A DNA stretch of 64,000 nucleotides from Candidatus Enterousia sp. Lineage in GTDB: Bacteria; Pseudomonadota; Alphaproteobacteria; Rs-D84. Where the stretch lies: positions 1,118 through 65,117 of the forward strand of contig JAZNBN010000006.1 of NCBI GenBank assembly GCA_045587125.1. Reading direction: 5' to 3'. Positions 5,702-62,074 of this stretch are shown here, in pieces. The position numbers and the translations under genes were made by a program. The notes under the pieces are model-generated. The model did not search any database and was not told the origin of the DNA. It was given only the letters and a program-made list of their open reading frames with translations. The stretch's first letter is position 1, and each line of letters opens with the position of its first letter.

Positions 5702-5950
5702 ATGACCACAGAAAACAACCAGAATTTTTTTGATTTCAGAGAATTAATATACATTATCTATAATGGTATGGCCACAGGCGGAATCGTCAATTATACCAAT
5801 CAACTTATTGATAACGGTTACAATCGTGAAACCCTTATTATTTTATTGATGTGGATTGCTGGATTCGCCTATTCTGCAAATCGTTTATACGACATATATA
5901 AAACCAAAAAAGAGAATCAGAACAATAAACACAACCAAAACCAAAGATAA
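5702..5950 (+). CDS. hypothetical small membrane protein
   Basis: 82 aa ORF with one hydrophobic segment (LIILLMWIAGFAYSA) and a basic or Asn/Gln-rich tail. It is followed by a hairpin. No family recognised. Confidence 0.45.
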   Translation: MTTENNQNFFDFRELIYIIYNGMATGGIVNYTNQLIDNGYNRETLIILLMWIAGFAYSANRLYDIYKTKKENQNNKHNQNQR

Positions 5951-5980
5951 AAACACCCGCCAACTGGCGGGTTATTTTAT
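5951..5980. terminator. hairpin between convergent genes (bidirectional terminator candidate)
   Basis: cccgcc-aact-ggcggg stem flanked by an A-run and a T-run. It lies between the 82-aa ORF (+) and tatA (-). Confidence 0.65.
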
Positions 5981-19440: not shown

Positions 19441-20709
19441 ATGACACGACCACTTGCAGATTTAATGCGTCCAAATACAATTGATGATATTGTCGGACAA
19501 ACGACATTATTGGGTGAAAACGGACTGGTCCGTCGTATGGTAGATAATAAAAAATTATCTAATTTAATTTTATGGGGACCGCCGGGGTGTGGAAAAACAA
19601 CCATTGCACGTGCATTGGCAAATTCTGTTGATATGGATTTTGTCCCTATGTCCGCTGTATTTTCTGGCACAGCCGACATTAAAAAGGCAATGGATGCTGC
19701 GCGCATGAATCGTGATATTGGTCGCAGCACGTTGTTATTCATAGATGAAATTCATCGCTTTAATAAAACACAACAAGATACATTATTGCCTTATTTAGAA
19801 GATGGCACAGTTGTATTTATGGGTGCGACCACTGAAAACCCCAGTTTTAATTTAAATAACGCATTGTTATCCAGATGTCATGTTGGTGTATTATCCGCCC
19901 TGTCCACCGAAGACCTGTTAATTTTAATAAAACGTGCCGAAAAATTCTTGGATAAAGAATTACCATTAACAGATGATGCACGCACACATTTGGCCCAGAT
20001 GGCAGACGGCGATGCACGATTTTTATTAAACACAGTTGAATATTTAATCAACGCGAATTTCAAAAAAGAATTATCACCAGACGAACTGGATAACGCTGTA
20101 CAAAAACGTGCCCCGATGTCTGACAAACATGGTGATGAACATTATAATTTAATATCTGCATTGCATAAATCCCTGCGGGCCAGTGATACAGATGCTGCAC
20201 TTTATTGGGCGGCACGCATGATGACGTCTGGCCAAGACCCAATGTATATTTTCCGCAGATTGACACGTTTTGCAGTTGAAGATGTTGGACTGGCAGATCC
20301 CAACGCATTACAAATCGCAATTTCCGCATGGCAGGCATACGAACGTCTTGGCAGTCCTGAGGGTGATTTAGCCCTGACACAATTGGTGATATATCTTGGC
20401 ACTGCACCGAAAAGCATTGGAAATTATCGTGCACAAAAATCGGCATACGCATCTGCCAAATCCACAGGCAGTTTAATGCCGCCAAAAAATATCTTAAACG
20501 CACCGACAAAATTAATGCGTGACCTGGGATATAACGAAGGTTACATTTATGACCCAGATACAGAATCCGGATTTTCTGGACAAAACTGTTTTCCGGACGG
20601 AATGCCACGCCAGAAATTTTATATACCTGTGGAACGTGGATTTGAACGTGAAATAAAAAAACGTCTTGATTACTGGGACGGATTACGTAAAAAGTTAAAC
20701 AAGAAATAA
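19441..20709 (+). CDS. rarA: replication-associated recombination protein A (AAA+ ATPase)
   Basis: 422 aa with Walker A GPPGCGKTT, Walker B LFIDEIHRFNK and a MgsA C-terminal domain (HYNLISALHKSLRASDTDAALYW). Confidence 0.92.
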   Translation: MTRPLADLMRPNTIDDIVGQTTLLGENGLVRRMVDNKKLSNLILWGPPGCGKTTIARALANSVDMDFVPMSAVFSGTADIKKAMDAARMNRDIGRSTLLFIDEIHRFNKTQQDTLLPYLEDGTVVFMGATTENPSFNLNNALLSRCHVGVLSALSTEDLLILIKRAEKFLDKELPLTDDARTHLAQMADGDARFLLNTVEYLINANFKKELSPDELDNAVQKRAPMSDKHGDEHYNLISALHKSLRASDTDAALYWAARMMTSGQDPMYIFRRLTRFAVEDVGLADPNALQIAISAWQAYERLGSPEGDLALTQLVIYLGTAPKSIGNYRAQKSAYASAKSTGSLMPPKNILNAPTKLMRDLGYNEGYIYDPDTESGFSGQNCFPDGMPRQKFYIPVERGFEREIKKRLDYWDGLRKKLNKK

Positions 20710-20733
20710 AAACGCCCCATTGGGGCATTTTTT
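20709..20733. terminator. hairpin between convergent rarA and an OMP gene
   Basis: aaaacgccccattggggcattttt: a gcccc/ggggc stem flanked by an A-run and a T-run. Confidence 0.7.
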
Positions 20734-20737
20734 ATTT

Positions 20738-21475
20738 TTAGAACAAAATATTCACCTGGGCACCGAACTGAATTTCATCACTTTCAAATTCATAATCAAT
20801 ATGTCCGACATATTGTGTGCGCCCATATTCACGAACTAATTTTGTATGCAACCATTCCTGGTCATAATCAGTTCCCTTGTATGGATCTTTACTGGTTGCC
20901 TTGCGAATTGTGAAACCTGCACCAAATCTCCAATCTGGGGCAATTCTGAAATAAGATTCCGGCGTAAAGTCAATAAAACTTACACCACGCAAATCATCAA
21001 ATACCCAATTTGATTTGATTGTTGCGGCCAACGTCAAACCTGCCCATTGACGTCCAAAACGCAACCCTGCGTAATATGTTGAATCCGCATAGTACGGTGT
21101 ACGAACGTGTGAACTGCCCCCGACTTTGAATCCCAACAATAAATCAGAGATCAAATTTGATTCTGTATCACCTGGTCGTCCCATACGGTACACTGCACCG
21201 AAATCTATGGCAGAAAAACCATCTTCATCACCATTAAAGTGATGTTGATAATGAACATTTGCACCAATACTTAGACGGCTGTTCATACCATAAGAAAAAC
21301 TTTGCCCTGCCCGTAAAGTATGATCCCAATACGCAACAGACGTTTTAGTTAAGACTTCTTCTGCCGCCTGCAAAAACAACGGATCAGACGTATCACGTGA
21401 TAAATCATTTGCAGACGATGCAAAAGGCATAGTAAACACCCCTGCAATTAAACAAACAGATAAAAATTTATACAT
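20738..21475 (-). CDS. outer-membrane beta-barrel protein (245 aa)
   Basis: Has a signal peptide (MPFASSA), alternating amphipathic beta-strand pattern, aromatic girdle residues and a C-terminal Phe (VNILF). Confidence 0.65.
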   Translation of the reverse strand: MYKFLSVCLIAGVFTMPFASSANDLSRDTSDPLFLQAAEEVLTKTSVAYWDHTLRAGQSFSYGMNSRLSIGANVHYQHHFNGDEDGFSAIDFGAVYRMGRPGDTESNLISDLLLGFKVGGSSHVRTPYYADSTYYAGLRFGRQWAGLTLAATIKSNWVFDDLRGVSFIDFTPESYFRIAPDWRFGAGFTIRKATSKDPYKGTDYDQEWLHTKLVREYGRTQYVGHIDYEFESDEIQFGAQVNILF

Positions 21476-28182: not shown

Positions 28183-28281
28183 CACTGTGATTAGCGAAAA
28201 AATTAAAGATAATGGTATAGATAAGCGGGTTGGCAATGGCGTAGTGTACAGAAGTTACATGAGTGCTTTACCCCACCCCGT
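28183..28281. repeat. nested-hairpin repeat, copy 1a (left arm, variable module and apical stem present; right outer arm missing; decayed)
   Basis: cactgtgattagcgaaaaaattaaagataatggtatagata + agcgggttggcaatggc + gtagtgtacagaagttacatga + a partly complementary right module. It abuts copy 1b directly. Confidence 0.8.
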
Positions 28282-28398
28282 AATTAGCGGAAAAATTAAA
28301 GATAATGGTATAGATACGCACAAACCCGACATCGTAGTGTACAAATGCTACATGAGATGTCGGGTTTGTGTGTAGATATGCCATTAGATTTAATTTTA
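28282..28398. repeat. nested-hairpin repeat, copy 1b (complete)
   Basis: Hairpin 28292-28397. The outer arms pair over 25 positions with two tandem G.A/A.G mismatches and one G.U. The inner stem is 17 bp (cgcacaaacccgacatc / gatgtcgggtttgtgtg). The apical stem is gta(g)tgta / tacatga. The right end overlaps the ftsK stop codon. Confidence 0.9.
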
Positions 28399-40757: not shown

Positions 40758-40785
40758 AAAAAAATCCCCCACTTGGGGGATTTTT
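40758..40785. terminator. ATCCCCC-N4-GGGGGAT terminator between convergent genes
   Basis: aaaaaaatcccccacttgggggattttt. Confidence 0.75.
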
Positions 40786-40804
40786 CAAGGACGGAAACTG
40801 ATTA

Positions 40805-41950
40805 TTATTCCGTTGTGGTGTTTTCCAGTAACTTCCAACCCATAAACGTATATCCTGGCTTTACTGGGTCGGATGGAACGGTAATACTGCCTTCATACGT
40901 ACATTGATTGATTGTATGTGCACCATTATTATCTGGGTTCCAATCAATATTAATTGTGTTAGCCGCACATGTGGCAGGTGACACAGGCAGACTGTTCATT
41001 ACCGCAGTACGGAACGTGCGATAGTACACGCCATCGGCCTGCAGGTTGCTCACACAGACGTCCGCGCAATTGGACGCGCAATCATAATCCGTATCTTCGT
41101 TGCTGTTGAACACCCACGGGGCAGATGTAACTATTACTTTGTCGCCACCAGTTGGGGTAAAGCCATCAACCTGACAATAACAATATTGTGCACCTTCAGC
41201 ACCCGTTTCATCGGTCAGGGTGTCTACAATAGTGATTTCCCCGGCAGTACTTGTGTTCCAATCAAATTCTCTTACCCCTGGTTGCGTGCTGCAACGGCCA
41301 TGGCCCGTTATCATGCCTTTGTCGCCATAGGCGGACGCAAATGCCATCGGGTCGCCTGCAATACCCGCATCAGATGATGTCAGATTATAAGACACACCTT
41401 GATTTCCGTTGTTATCGTTAGATGTATATCCAGTGCCGACGTCTTCACCAATTGTTTCACCTATATCCAATCCTGGTTTTACGTGCCATCCGGCAACGCA
41501 TGCCGTTGGTTCGCACGTGTCAACCCCACTGCCATAGTAATCGTTACCCGTTACCGCCGTTGCATGTGCTATGTTTGCCGTTGCAACCGTACATGCTGTA
41601 TAACATTGTGTGTCTGCACCTGAACCTTCGGCACTGTTTGGGTATTCGGTTGGACATTGGGCGATACTGTTGTCCGCCGTTTCAACCGTGAATCCACCAC
41701 CAACGCAGTATGAACCCGCGGGGCATGTTGTTTTGTCCACAGATGTTTCTGTTACGCTTAAATATTGACCAGGGTCCAATGTATAATCTATCAAATCCCA
41801 TGTCGCGATTGTATTTGCCGTGGCGTTATTGTCCGATACGCCCAATACATCAACCGTACATGTGTTCTCACTGGTTATTATTTTATCGGCACCGAATGCA
41901 GGTGCAATAAACGTTCCCATTAATGCGGTGGTTAAAAAATATTTTTTCAT
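40805..41950 (-). CDS. Cys-rich surface/secreted protein, paralog A (C-terminal Listeria-Bacteroides-type repeat)
   Basis: Start at MKKYFLTTALMGTFIAPAFGA (ATG 41948-41950, RBS ggaaaggg). Contains a CPAGSYCVGGG motif and the C-terminal PVKPGYTFMGWK (GYTF.GW repeat). It is a paralog of 47684-48811. Confidence 0.7.
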   Translation of the reverse strand: MKKYFLTTALMGTFIAPAFGADKIITSENTCTVDVLGVSDNNATANTIATWDLIDYTLDPGQYLSVTETSVDKTTCPAGSYCVGGGFTVETADNSIAQCPTEYPNSAEGSGADTQCYTACTVATANIAHATAVTGNDYYGSGVDTCEPTACVAGWHVKPGLDIGETIGEDVGTGYTSNDNNGNQGVSYNLTSSDAGIAGDPMAFASAYGDKGMITGHGRCSTQPGVREFDWNTSTAGEITIVDTLTDETGAEGAQYCYCQVDGFTPTGGDKVIVTSAPWVFNSNEDTDYDCASNCADVCVSNLQADGVYYRTFRTAVMNSLPVSPATCAANTINIDWNPDNNGAHTINQCTYEGSITVPSDPVKPGYTFMGWKLLENTTTE

Positions 41951-41978
41951 TTCCCTTTCCTTTTCGTTATAAAAAAAC

Positions 41979-42015
41979 AATCACCTTAATGGCATGGTAT
42001 GCTATTAAGGTGATT
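41979..42015 (-). promoter_or_regulatory. leader hairpin plus U-run (terminator/attenuator-like) upstream of paralog A
   Basis: aatcaccttaat..attaaggtgatt: a stem of about 12-17 bp. In the mRNA sense it is followed by TTTTTTT and lies about 30 nt before the ATG. The same element is conserved at 48839-48875. Confidence 0.5.
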
Positions 42016-42022
42016 ATTCAAC

Positions 42023-42044
42023 AACGCAAACGTACGTTTGCGTT
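42023..42044. promoter_or_regulatory. perfect 22-bp palindrome in the paralog A leader
   Basis: aacgcaaacgt|acgtttgcgtt. The arms are conserved at 48883-48903, where the centre differs. Confidence 0.5.
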
Positions 42045-42056
42045 AAATGTTTTTAA

Positions 42057-42072
42057 CTCTCTCTCTCTCTCT
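42057..42072. repeat. (CT)8 / (AG)8 dinucleotide microsatellite in the paralog A leader
   Basis: Counted directly: 8 CT units here versus 7 at the paralogous position 48916-48929. Confidence 0.9.
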
Positions 42073-42150
42073 AGATTTCTGCGGAATTTTATCATTTTTT
42101 CCTTCGCTTTTCCCTGATTACCTGAATTTTATCACAAACCACACATTATT

Positions 42151-42216
42151 AAAAGCAGAAAATTAAATAGAACAGTTTAGATGTGGAACGGCCCCGATAA
42201 CGTAGTGTACAAACGA
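42151..42216. repeat. nested-hairpin repeat, copy 2a (degenerate and truncated)
   Basis: gcagaaaattaaa..tag..gtggaacggccccgataac + gtagtgtacaaacga. It is truncated within the apical loop and abuts copy 2b. Confidence 0.6.
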
Positions 42217-42335
42217 CACGATTAGCAGAAAATTAAAGATAATGGTATAGATACGCACAAACCCGACATCGTAGTGTACAAATGCTACATGAGATGTCGG
42301 GTTTGTGTGTAGATACGCCATTAGATTTAATTTTT
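42217..42335. repeat. nested-hairpin repeat, copy 2b (complete)
   Basis: The inner and apical parts are identical to copy 1b. There is one substitution in the right arm (tagataCgcc). The trxB stop codon (42327-42329) lies inside the right arm. Confidence 0.9.
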
Positions 42336-43226
42336 GTTAAGGTATGCGATGGCATCCATCCCAGCCGTACACCCTGTTCCAACTGCTGTGGCAATTTGCA
42401 TCTTTATATCACTGTGCACATCGCCTGCAACAAACATACCGACTGGCAATGCAGATGGTGCCAAACGACCCATTGCATCACGTTTAACATCTTCGGTTAA
42501 ATAATCTGTGTTGGCTTCGTGTCCGATTGCAACAAACACACCGTCAACAACCAACTGTTCACCATTTGTTGTTGTAACAATCAATTCGCCATCTGTGGAA
42601 TCTGGCTTTTCTTCTATTTTTGCCAAATCTGTATTAAACAGACATTCAATGTTTTCACGTGCCGCTACACGTTCACGTAATACAGCCTCGGCCCGTGTAA
42701 ATTCAGATTTACGATATACGATTTTTACAGTCTTTGCCAAATCAGCCAAATACAATGCATCATTTAACGCACTGTTTCCACCACCCATAACAATAACTGT
42801 TTTACCACTGTAAAAGAATCCATCACATGTTGCACAATATGATACGCCACGTCCCATCAGTTCACGTGCACCTTCTATTTCCAGTTTACGTGGCGATGCG
42901 CCTGTGGCAATAATTACCGCACGACCATTATATTCTTTGCCATCATCACCAGACACAACGAATCCAGATTCTGCATCACCAGAAATATTTTTCGCAGACA
43001 CGAAATTTACAGTCGCACCAAAGGATTCTGCCTGTTTTTTCATAAACTCTGCCAACTCTAAACCACTGCCTAAAAAACCAGGGTAATTTTCCAAAGTTGC
43101 AATACCTGCCATCTGACCACCCAGACGTGCGCCGCCTAAAACGATTGTTTTTTTGTTTGCACGTGCTGCATATAACGCAGCCGTCAATCCCGCAGGACCA
43201 GAACCTAATATAATAACATCATACAT
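42327..43226 (-). CDS. trxB: thioredoxin-disulfide reductase
   Basis: 299 aa with the FAD motif GSGPAG, the redox-active CATCDG and the NADPH motif GGGNSA. Confidence 0.93.
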   Translation of the reverse strand: MYDVIILGSGPAGLTAALYAARANKKTIVLGGARLGGQMAGIATLENYPGFLGSGLELAEFMKKQAESFGATVNFVSAKNISGDAESGFVVSGDDGKEYNGRAVIIATGASPRKLEIEGARELMGRGVSYCATCDGFFYSGKTVIVMGGGNSALNDALYLADLAKTVKIVYRKSEFTRAEAVLRERVAARENIECLFNTDLAKIEEKPDSTDGELIVTTTNGEQLVVDGVFVAIGHEANTDYLTEDVKRDAMGRLAPSALPVGMFVAGDVHSDIKMQIATAVGTGCTAGMDAIAYLNKN

Positions 43227-43475: not shown

Positions 43476-44756
43476 ATGCTAGATATAAAATTTATTCGTG
43501 AAAACCCAGAAGTGGTAAAAAAGGCTTGTGAATTAAAAGGCTTTGCAGATTACACAGATCAAATTCTGGAACTGGATAAACGTGTTCGTGAATTAAAAAC
43601 AATCACACAATCAAAAACAGCCGAAAAAAATAAAATCACACGTGAAATCCCAACCGCTACGGACAAGGCACCTTTGATTGCACGGTCCAAAGAAATCAAC
43701 GCAGAAATTGCCGCAGACATGGCAGAACTTGCCGAAAAAGAAGAAAAACTGTCTGAATTACTGCACAGTGTCCCACAAATTCCATCTGCCGATACACCAA
43801 TCGGTCGTGATGATACAGAAAACGTTGAAGTACGCCGTGTCGGTACCCCACGTGAATTTGATTTCACACCACGCCCACAATGGGATTTATTGGAAATGAA
43901 CGGATGGTGGAAACCTGAAAAAATTGCTTCAATTTGTGGTACACGCACATACGCATTGTTTGGCGAAGCCGCAGAATTGGAATTGGCAATCCAAACATAC
44001 GTTATTCAAAAATTAATCAGCAAAGGATTTACATTTGTAAATTGCCCATCAATTACAAAACCACAAACAATATTTAACGCAGGTCATTTTACCGGCAAAG
44101 ATTTATCTGTTATGAACAACGATGTGTTTATGTTGACTGATACAGACCGTTGTTTGGCTGGCACTGCGGAAATTATATTAAATTCTTTGCACAGTGATGA
44201 AGTTTTAAATGAAAAAGATTTGCCTATTAAATACGCAGGCTATTCACCATGTTTCCGTAAAGAAGCAGGTGCTGCAGGTCGTGATACACGTGGAATCGTA
44301 CGCATACATCAATTTAACAAGGTTGAACAATACATCTATTGCACACCTGAACAATCTGATGAAATGCACGAACATTTATTAAACAACCTGTGTGAAGTTA
44401 TGGAAGATTTGGAATTACCATACCGTGTAATAATGGCATGCACTGGCGACATGGGATTTAACAAGGTCAAAATGCATGATGTTGAAGCCTGGTTCCCCAG
44501 TGAAAACACATACCGTGAATTGGGTTCTTGTTCTTCTATTGGTCAATATCAGGCACGCAGAACAAACACCCGTTTCCGTGCATCAGACGGCACTATGCAA
44601 TTCTGTGCAACATTAAATAACACAGGCATTGCCTTGCCACGTGCAATTGTACCTGTTATTGAAAACCACCAAAACCCAGATGGTTCTGTAAATATCCCAA
44701 AGGCATTACAACCATTGATGGGTGGTCGCACAAAAATCGGTGGCAAACACCAATAA
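43476..44756 (+). CDS. serS: serine--tRNA ligase
   Basis: 426 aa with an N-terminal coiled-coil arm and class II motifs (FRKEAGAAGRDTRGIVRIHQFNKVE, GSCSS). Confidence 0.93.
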   Translation: MLDIKFIRENPEVVKKACELKGFADYTDQILELDKRVRELKTITQSKTAEKNKITREIPTATDKAPLIARSKEINAEIAADMAELAEKEEKLSELLHSVPQIPSADTPIGRDDTENVEVRRVGTPREFDFTPRPQWDLLEMNGWWKPEKIASICGTRTYALFGEAAELELAIQTYVIQKLISKGFTFVNCPSITKPQTIFNAGHFTGKDLSVMNNDVFMLTDTDRCLAGTAEIILNSLHSDEVLNEKDLPIKYAGYSPCFRKEAGAAGRDTRGIVRIHQFNKVEQYIYCTPEQSDEMHEHLLNNLCEVMEDLELPYRVIMACTGDMGFNKVKMHDVEAWFPSENTYRELGSCSSIGQYQARRTNTRFRASDGTMQFCATLNNTGIALPRAIVPVIENHQNPDGSVNIPKALQPLMGGRTKIGGKHQ

Positions 44757-44783
44757 AAAAATCCCCGTTCGGGGATTTTTTTA
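44756..44783. terminator. ATCCCC-N4-GGGGAT bidirectional terminator
   Basis: aaaaaatccccgttcggggattttttt, between convergent serS and the 175-aa ORF. Confidence 0.8.
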
Positions 44784-45450: not shown

Positions 45451-47283
45451 ATGAAAATTCGTAATATTGCAATTATTGCACACGTTGACCATGGGAAAAC
45501 CACACTGGTTGACAACATGTTAAAACAGGCCGGAACATTCCGTGCCAACGAAAAGGTCGAAGACCGTGTTATGGACAGTGGTGATATTGAACGTGAACGT
45601 GGCATTACAATTTCTGCAAAACCAACATCTATCCAGTGGGGCGAATACAAAATCAATATCGTAGATACACCTGGACACGCAGACTTTGGTGGCGAAGTTG
45701 AACGTATTTTATCCATGGTTGATGGCGTAGTATTATTGGTTGACAGTGCCGAAGGTCCCCTGCCCCAGACCAAGTTTGTATTATCCAAGGCATTAAAATT
45801 GGGCCTACGTCCAATCGTATGTATTAACAAAGTTGACCGTGGTGACGCACGTCCGGACGAAGTTTTAACAGAAACATTTGATTTATTTGATAAACTGGGT
45901 GCAACAGATTCACAACTTGATTTCCCATATTTATATTCTGTTGGCCGTGATGGTTGGGCTGTACGTAATCTGAACGATGAAAAGAAAGACCTGACCCCAT
46001 TATTTCAATTGATTGTAGATCATGTGCCGGCACCTGATTGCAACGGTGAACGTTGCCAATTGGACGCACCATTTAAGATGTTGGCCACAACACTGGAAGC
46101 AGACCCATATGTTGGCCGAATACTGACCGGGAAAATTGAATCAGGAACTGTTCGTGTTGGCCAATCGGTCAAGGCAATAAACATGCATGGTGAATTTATA
46201 GAAAATGCAAAAATCACCAAAATCATTGAACATCGTGGAATTGAAAAAGTATCACGTGATACGGCATCCGCAGGTGACATTGTTGTTGTAGCCGGTTTTT
46301 CCAAAGCGACTGTATCCGACACATTGTGCGACCCATGTGTCACAGAACCCATTCCTGCGATGCCAATTGATCCACCAACCCTGACCATGACATTTTTTGT
46401 AAACACATCACCATTGGCGGGTAAATCTGGTAAAAAATTAACATCACGCATGATTGGCGAACGCCTGTTCAAAGAAGCCGAAACAAACATCGCATTAAAG
46501 GTTGAACAAAGCGAAAATAACGAAGCGTTCGAGGTTTCCGGTCGTGGCGAATTACAATTGGGTATTTTAATTGAAACAATGCGCCGTGAAGGATTTGAAT
46601 TATCTGTATCACGTCCACGCGTTGTTATGACAGACGGTGAAAATGGCGAAAAACTGGAACCAATCGAAGATGTTGTTATTGACGTAGATGACGAATTCAG
46701 CGGCGTAGTTATTGAAAAAATGACAAAACGCAAGGCAACAATTACTGAAATGAAGGCATCTGGTGGCGGAAAAACCCGTATTGTATTTTCTGCACCATCA
46801 CGCGGTTTAATTGGGTATTTGTCTGAATTCCGCACAGACACCCGCGGCACAGGAATTATGAACCGTGTATTTGCAGAATACGGCCCATATCGTGGTCCAA
46901 TTATGCAATACCGCCCAGGTGTTTTGGTATCCATGGAAAAAGGCAGTGCCGCAACATATGCCCTGTTTAATTTGCAACCACGTGGAACATTGTTCATTGA
47001 CCCACAAACAGAAGTTTATTCTGGCATGATTATCGGTGAACACAGCAAAGAAAATGACTTAGAGGTAAATCCAATCAAGGGTAAAGAACTGACCAACATG
47101 CGTTCTGTAACCGCCGACGAAAAATTATTCTTGGCGCCACCACGTCGCATATCTTTGGAAGAAGCATTGTCTTATATCTTGGATGACGAATTGGTAGAAG
47201 TTACTCCAGACACAATTCGTCTGCGTAAAAAAGAACTGGACAGCAACGTTCGCAAGAAAACACGTAAAAACGCAGACGCTTAA
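45451..47283 (+). CDS. typA: translational GTPase TypA/BipA
   Basis: MKIRNIAIIAHVDHGKTTLVD, DTPGHADFGGEV and NKVD motifs are present, with EF-G-like domains. Start is the ATG at 45451. Confidence 0.93.
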   Translation: MKIRNIAIIAHVDHGKTTLVDNMLKQAGTFRANEKVEDRVMDSGDIERERGITISAKPTSIQWGEYKINIVDTPGHADFGGEVERILSMVDGVVLLVDSAEGPLPQTKFVLSKALKLGLRPIVCINKVDRGDARPDEVLTETFDLFDKLGATDSQLDFPYLYSVGRDGWAVRNLNDEKKDLTPLFQLIVDHVPAPDCNGERCQLDAPFKMLATTLEADPYVGRILTGKIESGTVRVGQSVKAINMHGEFIENAKITKIIEHRGIEKVSRDTASAGDIVVVAGFSKATVSDTLCDPCVTEPIPAMPIDPPTLTMTFFVNTSPLAGKSGKKLTSRMIGERLFKEAETNIALKVEQSENNEAFEVSGRGELQLGILIETMRREGFELSVSRPRVVMTDGENGEKLEPIEDVVIDVDDEFSGVVIEKMTKRKATITEMKASGGGKTRIVFSAPSRGLIGYLSEFRTDTRGTGIMNRVFAEYGPYRGPIMQYRPGVLVSMEKGSAATYALFNLQPRGTLFIDPQTEVYSGMIIGEHSKENDLEVNPIKGKELTNMRSVTADEKLFLAPPRRISLEEALSYILDDELVEVTPDTIRLRKKELDSNVRKKTRKNADA

Positions 47284-47312
47284 AAAAATCCCCCAAACGG
47301 GGGATTTTTTTT
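47283..47312. terminator. ATCCCCC-N3-GGGGGAT terminator after typA
   Basis: aaaaaaatcccccaaacgggggatttttttt. Confidence 0.8.
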
Positions 47313-47400: not shown

Positions 47401-47615
47401 GTCATTGCGAGCGAACGCGTGGCAATCCAGTCATTCTTCTTCCTTGTCATTCTGGGGCTTGACCCCAGGACCCAGGTTTGGCCTTAGTATTTAAAGGAAA
47501 GATGACCTAGGTTCTGGGGTCAAGCCCCAGAATGACAAAAAATTTACAATTTTTTTCTATTTGGTTCGCTTTGCTCACACTTCTTAGTCCCAACCCCTGC
47601 CTTCGCAGGGGTGAC
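47401..47615. repeat. cluster of GC-rich GTCAT/GTCAC-hairpin mini-palindromes, including a 23-bp inverted pair (MITE-like)
   Basis: gtcattgcgagcgaacgcgtggcaatccag (47401-47430). gtcattctggggcttgaccccag (47446-47468) has a perfect inverted copy at 47514-47536. gtcacccctgcgaaggcaggggttggg lies on the minus strand (47589-47615). These are much more GC-rich than their surroundings. Confidence 0.8.
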
Positions 47616-47637
47616 AAAGGGGCTTAATTTTTTTATC

Positions 47638-47664
47638 AAAAAAATCCCCACCTGGGGGATTTTT
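47638..47664. terminator. ATCCCC-N4-GGGGAT terminator after paralog B
   Basis: aaaaaaatccccacctgggggattttt. It is part of the block duplicated with 40758-40785. Confidence 0.75.
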
Positions 47665-47683
47665 CAAGGACGGAAACTGATTA

Positions 47684-48811
47684 TTATTCCGTTGTGGTAT
47701 TTTCCAAAAGTTTCCATCCACTGAACGTATATCCTGGCTTTACTGGATCTGCTGGTACTTCAATCGCACCTTCATATGTACACTGATTGATTGTGTGTTT
47801 ACCACCATTATCCGGATTCCAGTCAATATTGATTGTGTTCGCCGCACATGTGGCAGGTCCATCAACAGTCCCAAATACTGCAGCACGGAATCCACTACTG
47901 TATGTAGCAATGTAACACAGGCGATCTGCACAGAACAGTGGGCAAGTTGAAGCGCACCCATTACCTGTTGAGCTATCACCGAGGAATACCCATGGTGCAG
48001 CTACGATAGGGGTGCTTTCGCCATCCGCACTTTTATAACCATCTAGCTGACAATAACAATATTGTGCGCCATCCGCACCAGTTTCATCTGGCCAATTATC
48101 TGCAATAGTTGGGTCAGTCCAAGTATTATCATTATTGTCGCCCGCCTGTGTACTGCAACGACCACGCCCAGTTATCATGCCTTTGTCTCCATAAACAACC
48201 GCAAATGCCATTGGTTCGCCTGCGATACCCGCATCAGAAGGAGTTATAGATATGTTAGCTTTTTTGGTACCAGTGTTATCATTACTTGCCCATCCTGTAC
48301 CTGTATCTGTTGTGCCAATTGTATCGGTCAGATTCAATCCTGGTTTTACGTGCCATCCGGCAATGCACGCCGTTGGTTCGCATGTATCAACCCCACTGCC
48401 ATAATAATCATTACCGGTAACCTTTGTGGCCTTCGCAACCATATCAACTGTACATGCGGTGTAACACTGGGTATCGGCGGACGCACCGTTTGCAGAATTT
48501 GGATATCCCGTTGGACATTGGGCGATACTGTTGTTCGCCGTTTCAACCGTGAATCCACCACCAACGCAATATGATCCCGCCGGACAGGTTGCCTTGTCCA
48601 CAGATGTTTCTGTTACGTTCAGATATTGCCCGGGATCCAATGTATAATCTATCAAATCCCATGTTGCAATCGTGTTGGCGATTGCATTATTATCGGACAC
48701 GCCCAATACATCAACCGTACATGTATTCGCACTGGTTATTATTTTGTCGACACCGAATGCAGGTGCAATAAACGTTCCCATTAATGCGGTGGTTAAAAAA
48801 TATTTTTTCAT
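47684..48811 (-). CDS. Cys-rich surface/secreted protein, paralog B
   Basis: Start at MKKYFLTTALMGTFIAPAFGV (ATG 48809-48811). The N-terminal ~130 aa and C-terminal ~60 aa are nearly identical to paralog A. The central region is divergent. Confidence 0.7.
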   Translation of the reverse strand: MKKYFLTTALMGTFIAPAFGVDKIITSANTCTVDVLGVSDNNAIANTIATWDLIDYTLDPGQYLNVTETSVDKATCPAGSYCVGGGFTVETANNSIAQCPTGYPNSANGASADTQCYTACTVDMVAKATKVTGNDYYGSGVDTCEPTACIAGWHVKPGLNLTDTIGTTDTGTGWASNDNTGTKKANISITPSDAGIAGEPMAFAVVYGDKGMITGRGRCSTQAGDNNDNTWTDPTIADNWPDETGADGAQYCYCQLDGYKSADGESTPIVAAPWVFLGDSSTGNGCASTCPLFCADRLCYIATYSSGFRAAVFGTVDGPATCAANTINIDWNPDNGGKHTINQCTYEGAIEVPADPVKPGYTFSGWKLLENTTTE

Positions 48812-48838
48812 TTCCCTTTCCTTTTCGTTATAAAAAAT

Positions 48839-48875
48839 AATCACCTTAATGGCACGACATGCCATTAAGGTGATT
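48839..48875 (-). promoter_or_regulatory. leader hairpin plus U-run upstream of paralog B
   Basis: aatcaccttaatggcacgacatgccattaaggtgatt, followed by TTTTTT in the mRNA sense. The arms are identical to the paralog A copy and the loop-proximal bases differ. Confidence 0.5.
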
Positions 48876-48882
48876 ATTCAAT

Positions 48883-48903
48883 AACGCAAACATAGTTTGC
48901 GTT
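48883..48903. promoter_or_regulatory. palindrome in the paralog B leader
   Basis: aacgcaaac-ata-gtttgcgtt. Confidence 0.45.
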
Positions 48904-48915
48904 AAATGTTTTTAA

Positions 48916-48929
48916 CTCTCTCTCTCTCT
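48916..48929. repeat. (CT)7 / (AG)7 microsatellite in the paralog B leader
   Basis: Counted directly: one unit shorter than at paralog A. Confidence 0.9.
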
Positions 48930-49021
48930 AGATTTCTGCGGAATTTTATCATTTTTCGCACTTTTTTCCCTGTTTTCTTGCCTGAATTATATCATAATTA
49001 CAAAAAACACACAAGACAGTT

Positions 49022-60446: not shown

Positions 60447-60468
60447 TAAAAACAAATTCCTACCTTTC

Positions 60469-60498
60469 GAAAAATCCCCGATTGGGGATTTTTTTTAT
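60469..60498. terminator. ATCCCC-N4-GGGGAT terminator
   Basis: gaaaaatccccgattggggatttttttt, between convergent secB and the 237-aa gene. Confidence 0.8.
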
Positions 60499-61232: not shown

Positions 61233-61352
61233 CACGTGATTAGCAGAAAAATTAAAGATAATGGTATAGATAAGCGGGTTTAAGATGACGTAGTGTACAT
61301 GACGTTACATGAGACATCTTAAACCCGCTTAGATATGCCATTAGATTTAATT
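61233..61352. repeat. nested-hairpin repeat, copy 3 (complete, different inner module)
   Basis: The outer arms and apical stem match copies 1b and 2b. The inner stem is agcgggtttaagatgac / gacatcttaaacccgct (16 of 17 paired). It lies between the yebC stop (61358) and the start of the 237-aa gene (61221). Confidence 0.9.
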
Positions 61353-61357
61353 TATTT

Positions 61358-62074
61358 TTATGCAGCGGCTGTGAACACCTTCTGCACATCATCATTTGCA
61401 TCCAATGCATCAACCAGTTTTTCCAGTTTTGCATATGCTTCATCGTCCAAATCCATTGGCATATTTGGCAACCAAGTCAATTCTGCCTGTTCTGGTTCAC
61501 CCAACACATCTGCCAGATATTTTTGTACAGTGATGAAATCTTCTGGTTTTGTTGTGATAATAAAACCTTCTTCGGATGTTTCCAGGTTATCTGCATTTGC
61601 ATCCATAATAATTTCCATCATTTCATCTTCGGTTTTACCGATTGATGCCGGATACATGATTTGACCTGCACGTGTAAACATAAACACAACAGAACCTTCT
61701 TCGCCCATATTTCCGCCATTTTTACCAAATATATTGCGGATTTCTGGCACTGTACGACGTGGGTTATCAGTCAATGCTTCTACGATAACAGGCACGGCAC
61801 CTGGGCCATAACCTTCGTATCTAACTGCTTCGTAACTTTCTGTATTTGCCCCAGATGCCTTTTCAATTGCGCGTTTGATATTATCATTTGGCATTGAATT
61901 TTTGCGCGCTGTCAAAATTGCCAAACGAAGTCTTGGATTGTTGTCTGGGTTTTTATCACCTAATTTGGCAGCCATAGTAATTTCACGTGCCAATTTTGTA
62001 AACAAACCACTGCGTGCAGCGTCTGCCGCACCTTTCTTGTGTTGAATGTTATGCCATTTACTGTGTCCACTCAT
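61358..62074 (-). CDS. yebC: YebC/PmpR-family transcriptional regulator
   Basis: MSGHSKWHNIQHKKGAADAARSGLFTKLAREI is the canonical N-terminus. Confidence 0.93.
   Translation of the reverse strand: MSGHSKWHNIQHKKGAADAARSGLFTKLAREITMAAKLGDKNPDNNPRLRLAILTARKNSMPNDNIKRAIEKASGANTESYEAVRYEGYGPGAVPVIVEALTDNPRRTVPEIRNIFGKNGGNMGEEGSVVFMFTRAGQIMYPASIGKTEDEMMEIIMDANADNLETSEEGFIITTKPEDFITVQKYLADVLGEPEQAELTWLPNMPMDLDDEAYAKLEKLVDALDANDDVQKVFTAAA

Follow-up and report, generated by a model that had tools for sequence, protein, structure and literature searches.

Among described repeats, the REPIN is the closest analogue of the element reported here. In the REPINs of Bertels and Rainey some parts are conserved, the middle is constrained only in its length and in its capacity to form a hairpin, and compensatory changes are common (PMC3116915). 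Repetitive extragenic palindromic (REP) sequences have a GTAG or GTGG tetranucleotide 0-2 nt 5' of their hairpin (PMC6006769), and their ends often supply stop codons (PMC3733652). Here we analyse a 64,000-nucleotide stretch of Candidatus Enterousia sp. (contig JAZNBN010000006.1 of assembly GCA_045587125.1, positions 1,118 to 65,117 of the forward strand; "the window" throughout), from a genus of the order Rs-D84 with genomes of about 0.75-1.0 Mb (PMC12306168), and a dispersed imperfect palindrome of ~113-120 nt that occurs there as five repeat units, every one on the + strand. We show that the middle helix of this hairpin is a spacer helix in which pairing is conserved and the sequence is free, and that copies exchange their middle modules through ectopic recombination or gene conversion, with the constant parts as anchors. 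The hairpin family is previously undescribed; its behaviour is already known in kind from REPs and REPINs.

The likeness to REPINs and to the bacterial interspersed mosaic elements (BIMEs) formed by REPs is broad, as both consist of many intergenic hairpins of ~100 nt with conserved parts and a compensated variable middle, and they have in common a GTAG tag 5' of a hairpin (here in the copies selected by a pattern that contains it), ends that provide stop codons, mosaic arrays, long vertical residence and the lack of a target duplication. Against this, there is no similarity in sequence, our element is A+T-rich with tandem G.A mismatches, no REP-associated tyrosine transposase (RAYT) was found in the sample, and the element has a single tagged hairpin at its apex, whereas REPINs have two inverted REPs of 7-20 bp at their ends. 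Where a REP is defined by a stem of 7-20 paired nucleotides with a loop of 2-5 nt, or by a bulged long hairpin, and is typically G+C-rich, the apical stem of the element has 5-6 bp including a G.U pair, a loop of 4-9 nt and an A+T-rich composition. Membership among the REPs or REPINs is not established. To our knowledge, the lock to one replication strand and to the ends of leading-strand genes that we describe below has not been reported for REPs. Taking the evidence as a whole, we consider it probable, though by no means assured, that the element is a REPIN/BIME-like structured repeat that sits in the slot of a terminator and is homogenised by ectopic recombination.

Conserved pairing in a variable middle helix

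The full hairpin beside yebC (copy 3, 61236-61353, + strand), an imperfect palindrome of ~115 nt whose fold covers 61243-61356, illustrates the modules of the element: an optional C-rich tail, a 24-nt outer stem, a middle helix of 17-18 bp and a conserved apex. Here the tail, an optional 5' extension, is represented by the motif GTGATTAGCAG (61236-61246) and is followed by a left outer arm of type 1, AAAAATTAAAGATAATGGTA (61247-61272), which ends in the invariant TAGATA and pairs, with two tandem G.A/A.G mismatches, with the right outer arm TAGATATGCCATTAGATTTAATTT (61330-61353). The variable module is the left middle arm AGCGGGTTTAAGATGAC (61273-61289), complementary at 16 of 17 positions to the right middle arm (G)ACATCTTAAACCCGCT (61313-61329). 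Between them lies the apex GTAGTGTAC-ATGACGT-TACATGAG (61290-61313), whose stem of 5-6 bp, GTGTA(C)/(G)TACAT, includes a G.U pair and is flanked by a GTA/GA internal loop. The RNA fold of this copy reaches -53.9 kcal/mol compared with -20.8 +/- 3.2 for shuffled sequences (z = -10.4). A sequence-only reading of the window had quoted the left middle arms exactly, as cgcacaaacccgacatc in copies 1b and 2b, agcgggtttaagatgac in copy 3, agcgggttggcaatggc in copy 1a and tggaacggccccgataac in copy 2a. Its pairing counts were likewise accurate (17 of 17 including one G.U in copies 1b and 2b; one A.A mismatch in copy 3), and its description of the outer arms and the apex as near-invariant holds within the window.

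Relatives were collected by scanning species-representative genomes with the pattern TAGATA-N14-21-GTAGTGTAC-N4-12-TACATGAG, which returned at least 110 loci; among the matches listed, all come from metagenome-assembled genomes (MAGs) of animal and human gut origin that bear the names Candidatus Enterousia, uncultured Alphaproteobacteria or Rickettsiales. A scan of metagenomes added 55 loci, of which 52 were not examined unit by unit; three copies of one contig (L140, L142 and L171) proved to be chance matches and were rejected as family members. Overall, Ca. Enterousia and related gut alphaproteobacterial MAGs yielded ~200 further units. The first set of 147 units comprises 103 full hairpins, 34 partial units and four hybrids, and its 87 distinct middle sequences fall into about 16 types. 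From the density in the window, three loci per 64 kb, we extrapolate, rather than count, ~40 loci per ~0.9-Mb genome. Rfam gave no match in the window at gathering thresholds, and below threshold only generic miRNA-precursor hairpins. An origin from phage was considered and rejected, the 10 viral-contig matches to a relaxed pattern being chance matches, none of which has the complementary right arm.

The invariance of motifs in the first set is partly a product of collecting by pattern; the right-hand TAGAT, which lay outside the search pattern, is nonetheless conserved. A covariance model built from an alignment of 100 copies recovered extra relatives that the exact pattern had missed. In these diverged relatives the most conserved core is AGTGTAC..TACA, and even the "constant" motifs show compensated variants (TAGATG...CAGAT; GCAGTGTAC...TACATAAG). 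One unit beside a yebC stop codon (L012:5148-5260) carries its apex (GCAGTGTAC..TACATAAG) inverted relative to its outer arms (CATCTA..TATCTA), which is evidence that recombination between the arms can invert the apical segment.

For the 100 full copies from other genomes, RNAalifold returned one long hairpin of 31 pairs, 18 of which show compensatory (double-sided) changes. In the middle helix 93.6% of cells are paired compared with 59.0 +/- 0.9% after shuffling, 567 cells are changed on both sides compared with 190 in shuffles, and the covariation score is 0.903 compared with 0.264, a value that none of 500 shuffles reached (slid controls, 0.10-0.28). Double-sided changes occur at 12 of the 13 main pairs; for example, one pair is CG in 38 copies, UA in 35 and AU in 24, and another is UA in 40, GC in 26, AU in 17 and CG in 12. 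The outer stem covaries as well, with two main arm types, AAATTAAAGATAATGGTA and ATAAATTAGAATGATT, and wholly different outer arms still pair at five loci (L020, L050, L091, L155 and L161). Non-Watson-Crick positions are conserved too, namely the tandem G.A/A.G formed by TAGATA facing TAGATA, the apical G.U and the GTA/GA internal loop. The paired fraction and the double-sided changes bear out the selection for pairing that the sequence-only reading had proposed, and the 16 or more types with their clear excess of compensation are at odds with the outcome it had named as contrary, a middle drawn from only two or three lineages with no such excess. Its term "hypervariable" overstates a limited set of discrete types whose 17-mers recur across species.

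A further proposal had been that the helix is kept while its strands are exchanged, with the motif cgggttt on the 5' arm of copies 1a and 3 and on the 3' arm of copies 1b and 2b. Copy 1a reads cgggttG. Copy 3 and copies 1b and 2b do share the 7-mer on opposite arms, but it stands 3-4 nt out of register and so does not amount to a helix-preserving exchange of strands. Among the 16 module types, two pairs share at least 7 nt on opposite arms where 0.55 are expected (P~0.10), and seven pairs share at least 6 nt where 2.7 are expected (P~0.02). This enrichment is only marginal, and we rejected strand swapping as a general rule.

Complementary arms might also persist without any function of pairing, if a neutral palindrome were kept by arm-to-arm templated correction or fold-back synthesis, for example through quasipalindrome template switching or hairpin mismatch repair. 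The mismatch spectrum of the middle helix is roughly neutral (83 transition-type mismatches compared with 47 others; 51 G.U compared with 32 A.C), and partial units made up of a left arm plus apex occur, both of which are in line with this idea. Such correction would, however, erase the invariant tandem G.A and the G.U of apex and outer stem, which are conserved in all copies. Moreover, the same A.G and A.C mismatches are retained in type-B modules from many MAGs, and hybrids whose arms do not match have stayed uncorrected. The invariant G.A and G.U pairs and the conserved mismatches contradict a templated origin of the arm complementarity, and we consider this explanation quite improbable.

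Exchange of modules between copies

Module types C-G are each found with both outer-arm types, a four-gamete-style sign of recombination between middle and scaffold, and in the four hybrid copies the left middle arm comes from one module and the right from another. At the orthologous locus downstream of trxB at least eight module types occur across 11 genomes, and the yebC and ftsK loci behave alike; at ftsK even the order of units is swapped, since the window has B as the partial and D as the full unit, and L042 has D as the partial and B as the full unit. Exchange is also visible between close strains. Ten contigs that encode a YebC 100% identical to that of the window are all occupied by the element, with near-identical flanks, and five of them carry the window's module, one a variant of it, and four the D-type module of copies 1b and 2b, in one case together with a truncated unit. 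In addition, the arms of L116 are drawn from two D subtypes, and strain L122 retains at locus 2 ~25 nt that unit 2a of the window has lost. Across larger distances, identical 17-mers recur in MAGs of different species.

The reassortment of arm types, the hybrids and the switch of module at yebC between strains with identical YebC support the cassette-like replacement that the sequence-only reading had offered as its second alternative, and the comparison of the same loci in close strains that it had suggested shows the turnover directly. Both alternatives, selection for pairing and replacement of modules, thus have direct support: selection maintains the pairing and recombination moves middle segments between copies, so that the middle changes in sequence without losing its helix. 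The same reading had held that ordinary terminator or MITE decay would not account for the pattern. To judge from their footprints, arrays arise through unequal exchange or slippage. In strain L122 (L122:2380-3900, compared with 40805-42340 of the window) the TrxB-like protein is identical and the neighbourhood past the element is different, with a DnaJ-domain gene and a Xer-type tyrosine recombinase in convergent orientation on the far side; a rearrangement breakpoint thus coincides with the element.

A constant scaffold with a variable 17-18-mer, the occurrence of units in arrays and an RNA fold optimised on one strand would also be expected of a guide-like RNA or programmable module, in which the 17-mer pairs with a phage, a plasmid or another locus. 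However, the 17-mer is locked in its own helix, the module types are few, old and common to several species, and no effector gene is associated with the element, whose neighbours are ftsK, trxB and yebC. The search for guide-like or target-like matches that had been suggested for the 17-mers found, with at most one mismatch in 0.9 Mb outside masked elements, further degenerate copies of the element and one chance-level exception. Matches to the element pattern in viral contigs were all at chance level, although phage and plasmid collections were not searched with the 17-mers as such. In the DNA sampled the guide reading is largely refuted, and we hold it to be very unlikely.

Gene ends and replication polarity

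Of 103 arrays, 98 have a right-hand neighbour gene on the opposite strand, and in 88 of the 103 its stop codon (TAA in 82 of these 88) is located -16 to +8 nt from the end of the right outer arm. The same arrangement recurs in the metagenome set (opposite strand in 40 of 44, stop-codon placement in 39 of 40), and most apparent exceptions are arrays whose last unit fell outside the exact pattern. To the left, 63 arrays have a convergent neighbour and 39 a co-directional one, and 62% of arrays stand at convergent junctions. The three full hairpins of the window belong to ftsK, a trxB-like gene and yebC: the right end of copy 1b overlaps the ftsK stop codon (tta, 28396-28398), the stop codon of the trxB-like gene (tta, 42327-42329) lies inside the right outer arm of copy 2b, and that of yebC (complement tta, 61358-61360) follows 4 nt past the right outer arm of copy 3.

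The second polarity concerns replication. GC skew on the element strand is negative at 96 of 98 genome loci (mean -0.18) and at 34 of 36 metagenome loci, and it remains negative at third codon positions in genes of both strands; only ~61% of neighbouring genes lie opposite to the element strand. Since G usually exceeds C on the leading strand, the element strand would be the leading-strand template and the abutted gene a leading-strand gene. At secB, for example, the element is found where the gene is on the G-rich strand and a plain terminator where the gene is on the C-rich strand. The element strand also folds better in 100 of 100 copies (-51.7 compared with -40.1 kcal/mol, RNA parameters); under DNA parameters the two strands of copy 3 lie close together (-29.4 compared with -26.5 kcal/mol). 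This better-folding strand is antisense to the abutted gene, and a C-rich, G-poor stretch often lies just upstream of the hairpin. Neither a plain terminator nor a known transposon accounts for this unusually strict double polarity, towards replication and towards the ends of leading-strand genes. GC skew of the replication type is very strong in these reduced genomes at all loci; the window itself has a GC skew of about -0.2 on the + strand (-0.24 to -0.36 at third codon positions), and its minus strand holds 41 of its 57 long open reading frames.

The element resembles a bidirectional intrinsic terminator in its genomic slot, in its A-rich 5' and T-rich 3' flanks and in its enrichment between convergent genes, and it differs in being five times longer, in its conserved motifs and non-canonical pairs, in forming a homogenised family and in its single replication polarity. 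Ordinary bidirectional terminators stand at 20705-20732 and 60468-60495 of the window, where five and two other MAGs, respectively, have the element. In the comparison of filled and empty sites, all ten strains with identical YebC are filled, and between species it is a canonical terminator, rather than an empty site, that takes the place of the element. Under the REPIN/BIME-like reading that we favour, the element would work at the 3' ends of genes through its RNA hairpin, as a terminator, an insulator or a processing or stability element, and would also close the leading-strand gene's own transcript. Because the better-folding strand corresponds to the head-on or antisense transcript, its main role may be to stop such transcripts from entering the leading-strand gene, and the C-rich tail could, as one guess, be a Rho-loading site. 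Some protein or RNase would bind the hairpin and read its G.A platforms and apex.

Several points weigh against this reading. A terminator role is suggested by position only, and a consensus terminator scan of the elements found no terminator-like site, because the U-rich run is part of the A/U-rich outer stem and does not follow a G+C stem. Canonical terminators beside element-bearing genes are only weakly depleted (7 of 89, 8%, compared with 50 of 317, 16%). A plain terminator needs neither an invariant apex nor conserved G.A mismatches. It would also be expected behind lagging-strand genes, to which 39% of neighbours belong; a clearly positive skew, the mark of such a gene, was seen at none of the loci. 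In the middle helix G.U exceeds A.C only modestly, so that RNA strand-specific selection on this helix is not strongly supported. Furthermore, a lock to one replication strand is the classic signature of single-strand-DNA processes, and a mobilising enzyme is possible elsewhere in the genome. It is conceivable, if improbable, that the element serves as cis site for an undescribed single-strand nucleic-acid system of reduced gut Alphaproteobacteria, copied or recombined beside leading-strand stop codons by an enzyme unrelated to the known Y1 transposases, with recognition on one replication strand through the invariant G.A platforms and the apex, and with the middle as an exchangeable identity cassette. 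If this were true, the element would be a new kind of REPIN-like replicator or a polar genome-organising site.

The main rival explanation is a non-autonomous mobile element of single-stranded DNA, REPIN/RAYT-like or derived from IS200/IS605, whose hairpin would fold in single-stranded DNA at the replication fork and be recognised and copied by an HUH/Y1 or other enzyme beside TAA-A-rich sequence on one template strand, with middle pairing needed only for the DNA hairpin. It explains the polarity most naturally, given that the orientation lock is near complete although far fewer neighbour genes are so oriented, and a strong orientation bias relative to replication is likewise found in IS200/IS605-derived elements (PATE). 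As in IS200/IS605 and REPs, there is no sign of a target-site duplication: the longest shared flank word averages 3.64 nt compared with 3.74 in permuted pairs (n = 72), the boundaries being fuzzy in A/T-rich flanks. The tandem arrays resemble BIMEs, the apical hairpin has GTAG immediately on its 5' side, like a REP (PMC6006769), REP ends often give stop codons (PMC3733652), and REPINs share conserved ends with a compensated variable middle (PMC3116915).

Other observations fit a mobile element less well. Every copy selected by the search pattern has GTAG immediately before its apical stem, as the pattern itself demanded, and the relatives found by the covariance model carry GCAG, GATG, GGAG, GAAG or ATAG at this position; the apical stem is also shorter than that of REPs. 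The better-folding strand is the leading-strand template, whereas IS200/IS605 uses the lagging-strand template, and the two strands differ strongly in folding under RNA parameters but little under DNA parameters. IS200/IS605-derived elements have distinct ends with their own subterminal hairpins and insert 3' of a fixed tetra- or pentanucleotide, unlike a single long palindrome whose junction with the stop codon varies. A tblastn search with E. coli RayT and an IS200 TnpA probe of our own composition gave no match at E<0.7 in ~1.27 Mb of flanks and window, a sample in which a single-copy gene elsewhere would mostly be missed. Finally, the orthologous loci are occupied in every genome that yielded the locus (11 for trxB and at least six for yebC, collected through element matches), and this constant occupancy fits long residence better than repeated insertion. 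We therefore regard a mobile element as possible but doubtful.

Correia/NEMIS and ERIC sequences offer another comparison, as they too are repeats of ~100-150 nt with terminal inverted repeats that are co-transcribed with their neighbours, with a long RNA hairpin that could plausibly act as an RNase III or stability element. These repeats, however, have target duplications and the presence/absence polymorphism typical of transposition, whereas our element shows no duplication, is strand-polar and is found strictly at stop codons.

The element is also reminiscent of integron attC sites such as the Vibrio cholerae repeats, imperfect palindromes of ~60-140 nt that follow stop codons, are conserved in structure over sequence and fold on the strand complementary to the gene, and it could be a single-strand site used by a tyrosine recombinase. 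Its position directly after stop codons, its conserved base and mismatch positions around a variable centre and its length of ~115 nt fit such a site. As in sedentary chromosomal integrons, moreover, the strand that folds is the complement of the coding strand and forms the leading-strand template. Against this stands the lack of R/L core sites (RYYYAAC/GTTRRRY), of an integron integrase and of a cassette array: the loci are dispersed among core housekeeping genes (ftsK, trxB, yebC, ruvA, secB), and the only recombinase gene seen is the Xer-type gene near the locus of one strain. An attC-like site seems to us highly unlikely.

Significance and further features of the window

Repeats are normally purged from such small genomes, and genomes of ~0.75-1.0 Mb nonetheless keep this element at the same gene ends across many sampled species. 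The family offers a clean natural case of a helix that is conserved without conservation of sequence, with module exchange visible at strain level. In practical terms, the element breaks up or confuses MAG assemblies, with many copies at contig ends, and it could serve to mark the ends of transcription units in annotation and possibly as a strain-typing locus. If the idea of a head-on insulator or of an enzyme outside the known Y1 transposases were true, it would bear on replication-transcription conflict or on the retention of selfish DNA in tiny genomes.

Besides copy 3, the window contains two arrays on the + strand, in each of which a truncated unit stands directly upstream of a full one. 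Copy 1a (28187-28279) is a partial unit with tail, left outer arm, module AGCGGGTTGGCAATGGC (28224-28240) and apex (28241-28263), followed by tgctttaccccacccc in place of the right arm; the adjoining full hairpin, copy 1b (28280-28397), carries the module CGCACAAACCCGACATC at 28317-28333 and its partner arm at 28356-28372. Copy 2a (~42158-42217) is a decayed partial unit with TAGATG and the module TGGAACGGCCCCGATAAC (42184-42201), which keeps only the 5' half of the apex, and it precedes the full hairpin of copy 2b (42220-42333), whose module CGCACAAACCCGACATC lies at 42254-42270. A record look-up returned no exact protein for the ftsK gene of the window or for the gene at 20738-21475.

The tail, of GTGATTAGCG type or CCCTTGC type, is found in 62 of 143 units (43%) at a fixed position of -33 to -27 from TAGATA, in the window for example at 61236-61246 and 28280-28290. 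CCCTTGC often lies in the loop of a small hairpin whose stem varies (CCCACC..GGTGGG, ACCGC..GCGGT or AACCCC..GGGGTT; for example at L006:5850-5940). A promoter formed by tail and left arm (CTTGC ... GATAAT/TAGAAT) was considered and rejected, as its spacing is 14-15 nt, it occurs in fewer than half of the units and the promoter scan was negative.

Canonical bidirectional terminators of the form AAAAA-TCCCC..loop..GGGGA-TTTTT also stand tight against stop codons in the window, and sites of this terminator family lie at 5949-5976, 20705-20732, 40758-40785, 44753-44780, 47282-47309, 47637-47664 and 60468-60495. A region of ~1.3 kb is duplicated at 40759-42100 and 47638-48956 with 77-86% identity and encodes a Listeria-Bacteroides repeat domain protein, and each duplicate adjoins an identical stretch of 41 nt that begins with (CT)7. 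GC skew falls in magnitude to -0.07 over 40-48 kb, compared with about -0.2 elsewhere. At 47444-47538 lies a separate palindrome with 34-nt arms that are 94% complementary (TTGTCATTCTGGGGCTTGACCCCAGGACCCAGGT ...), unrelated in sequence to the element.

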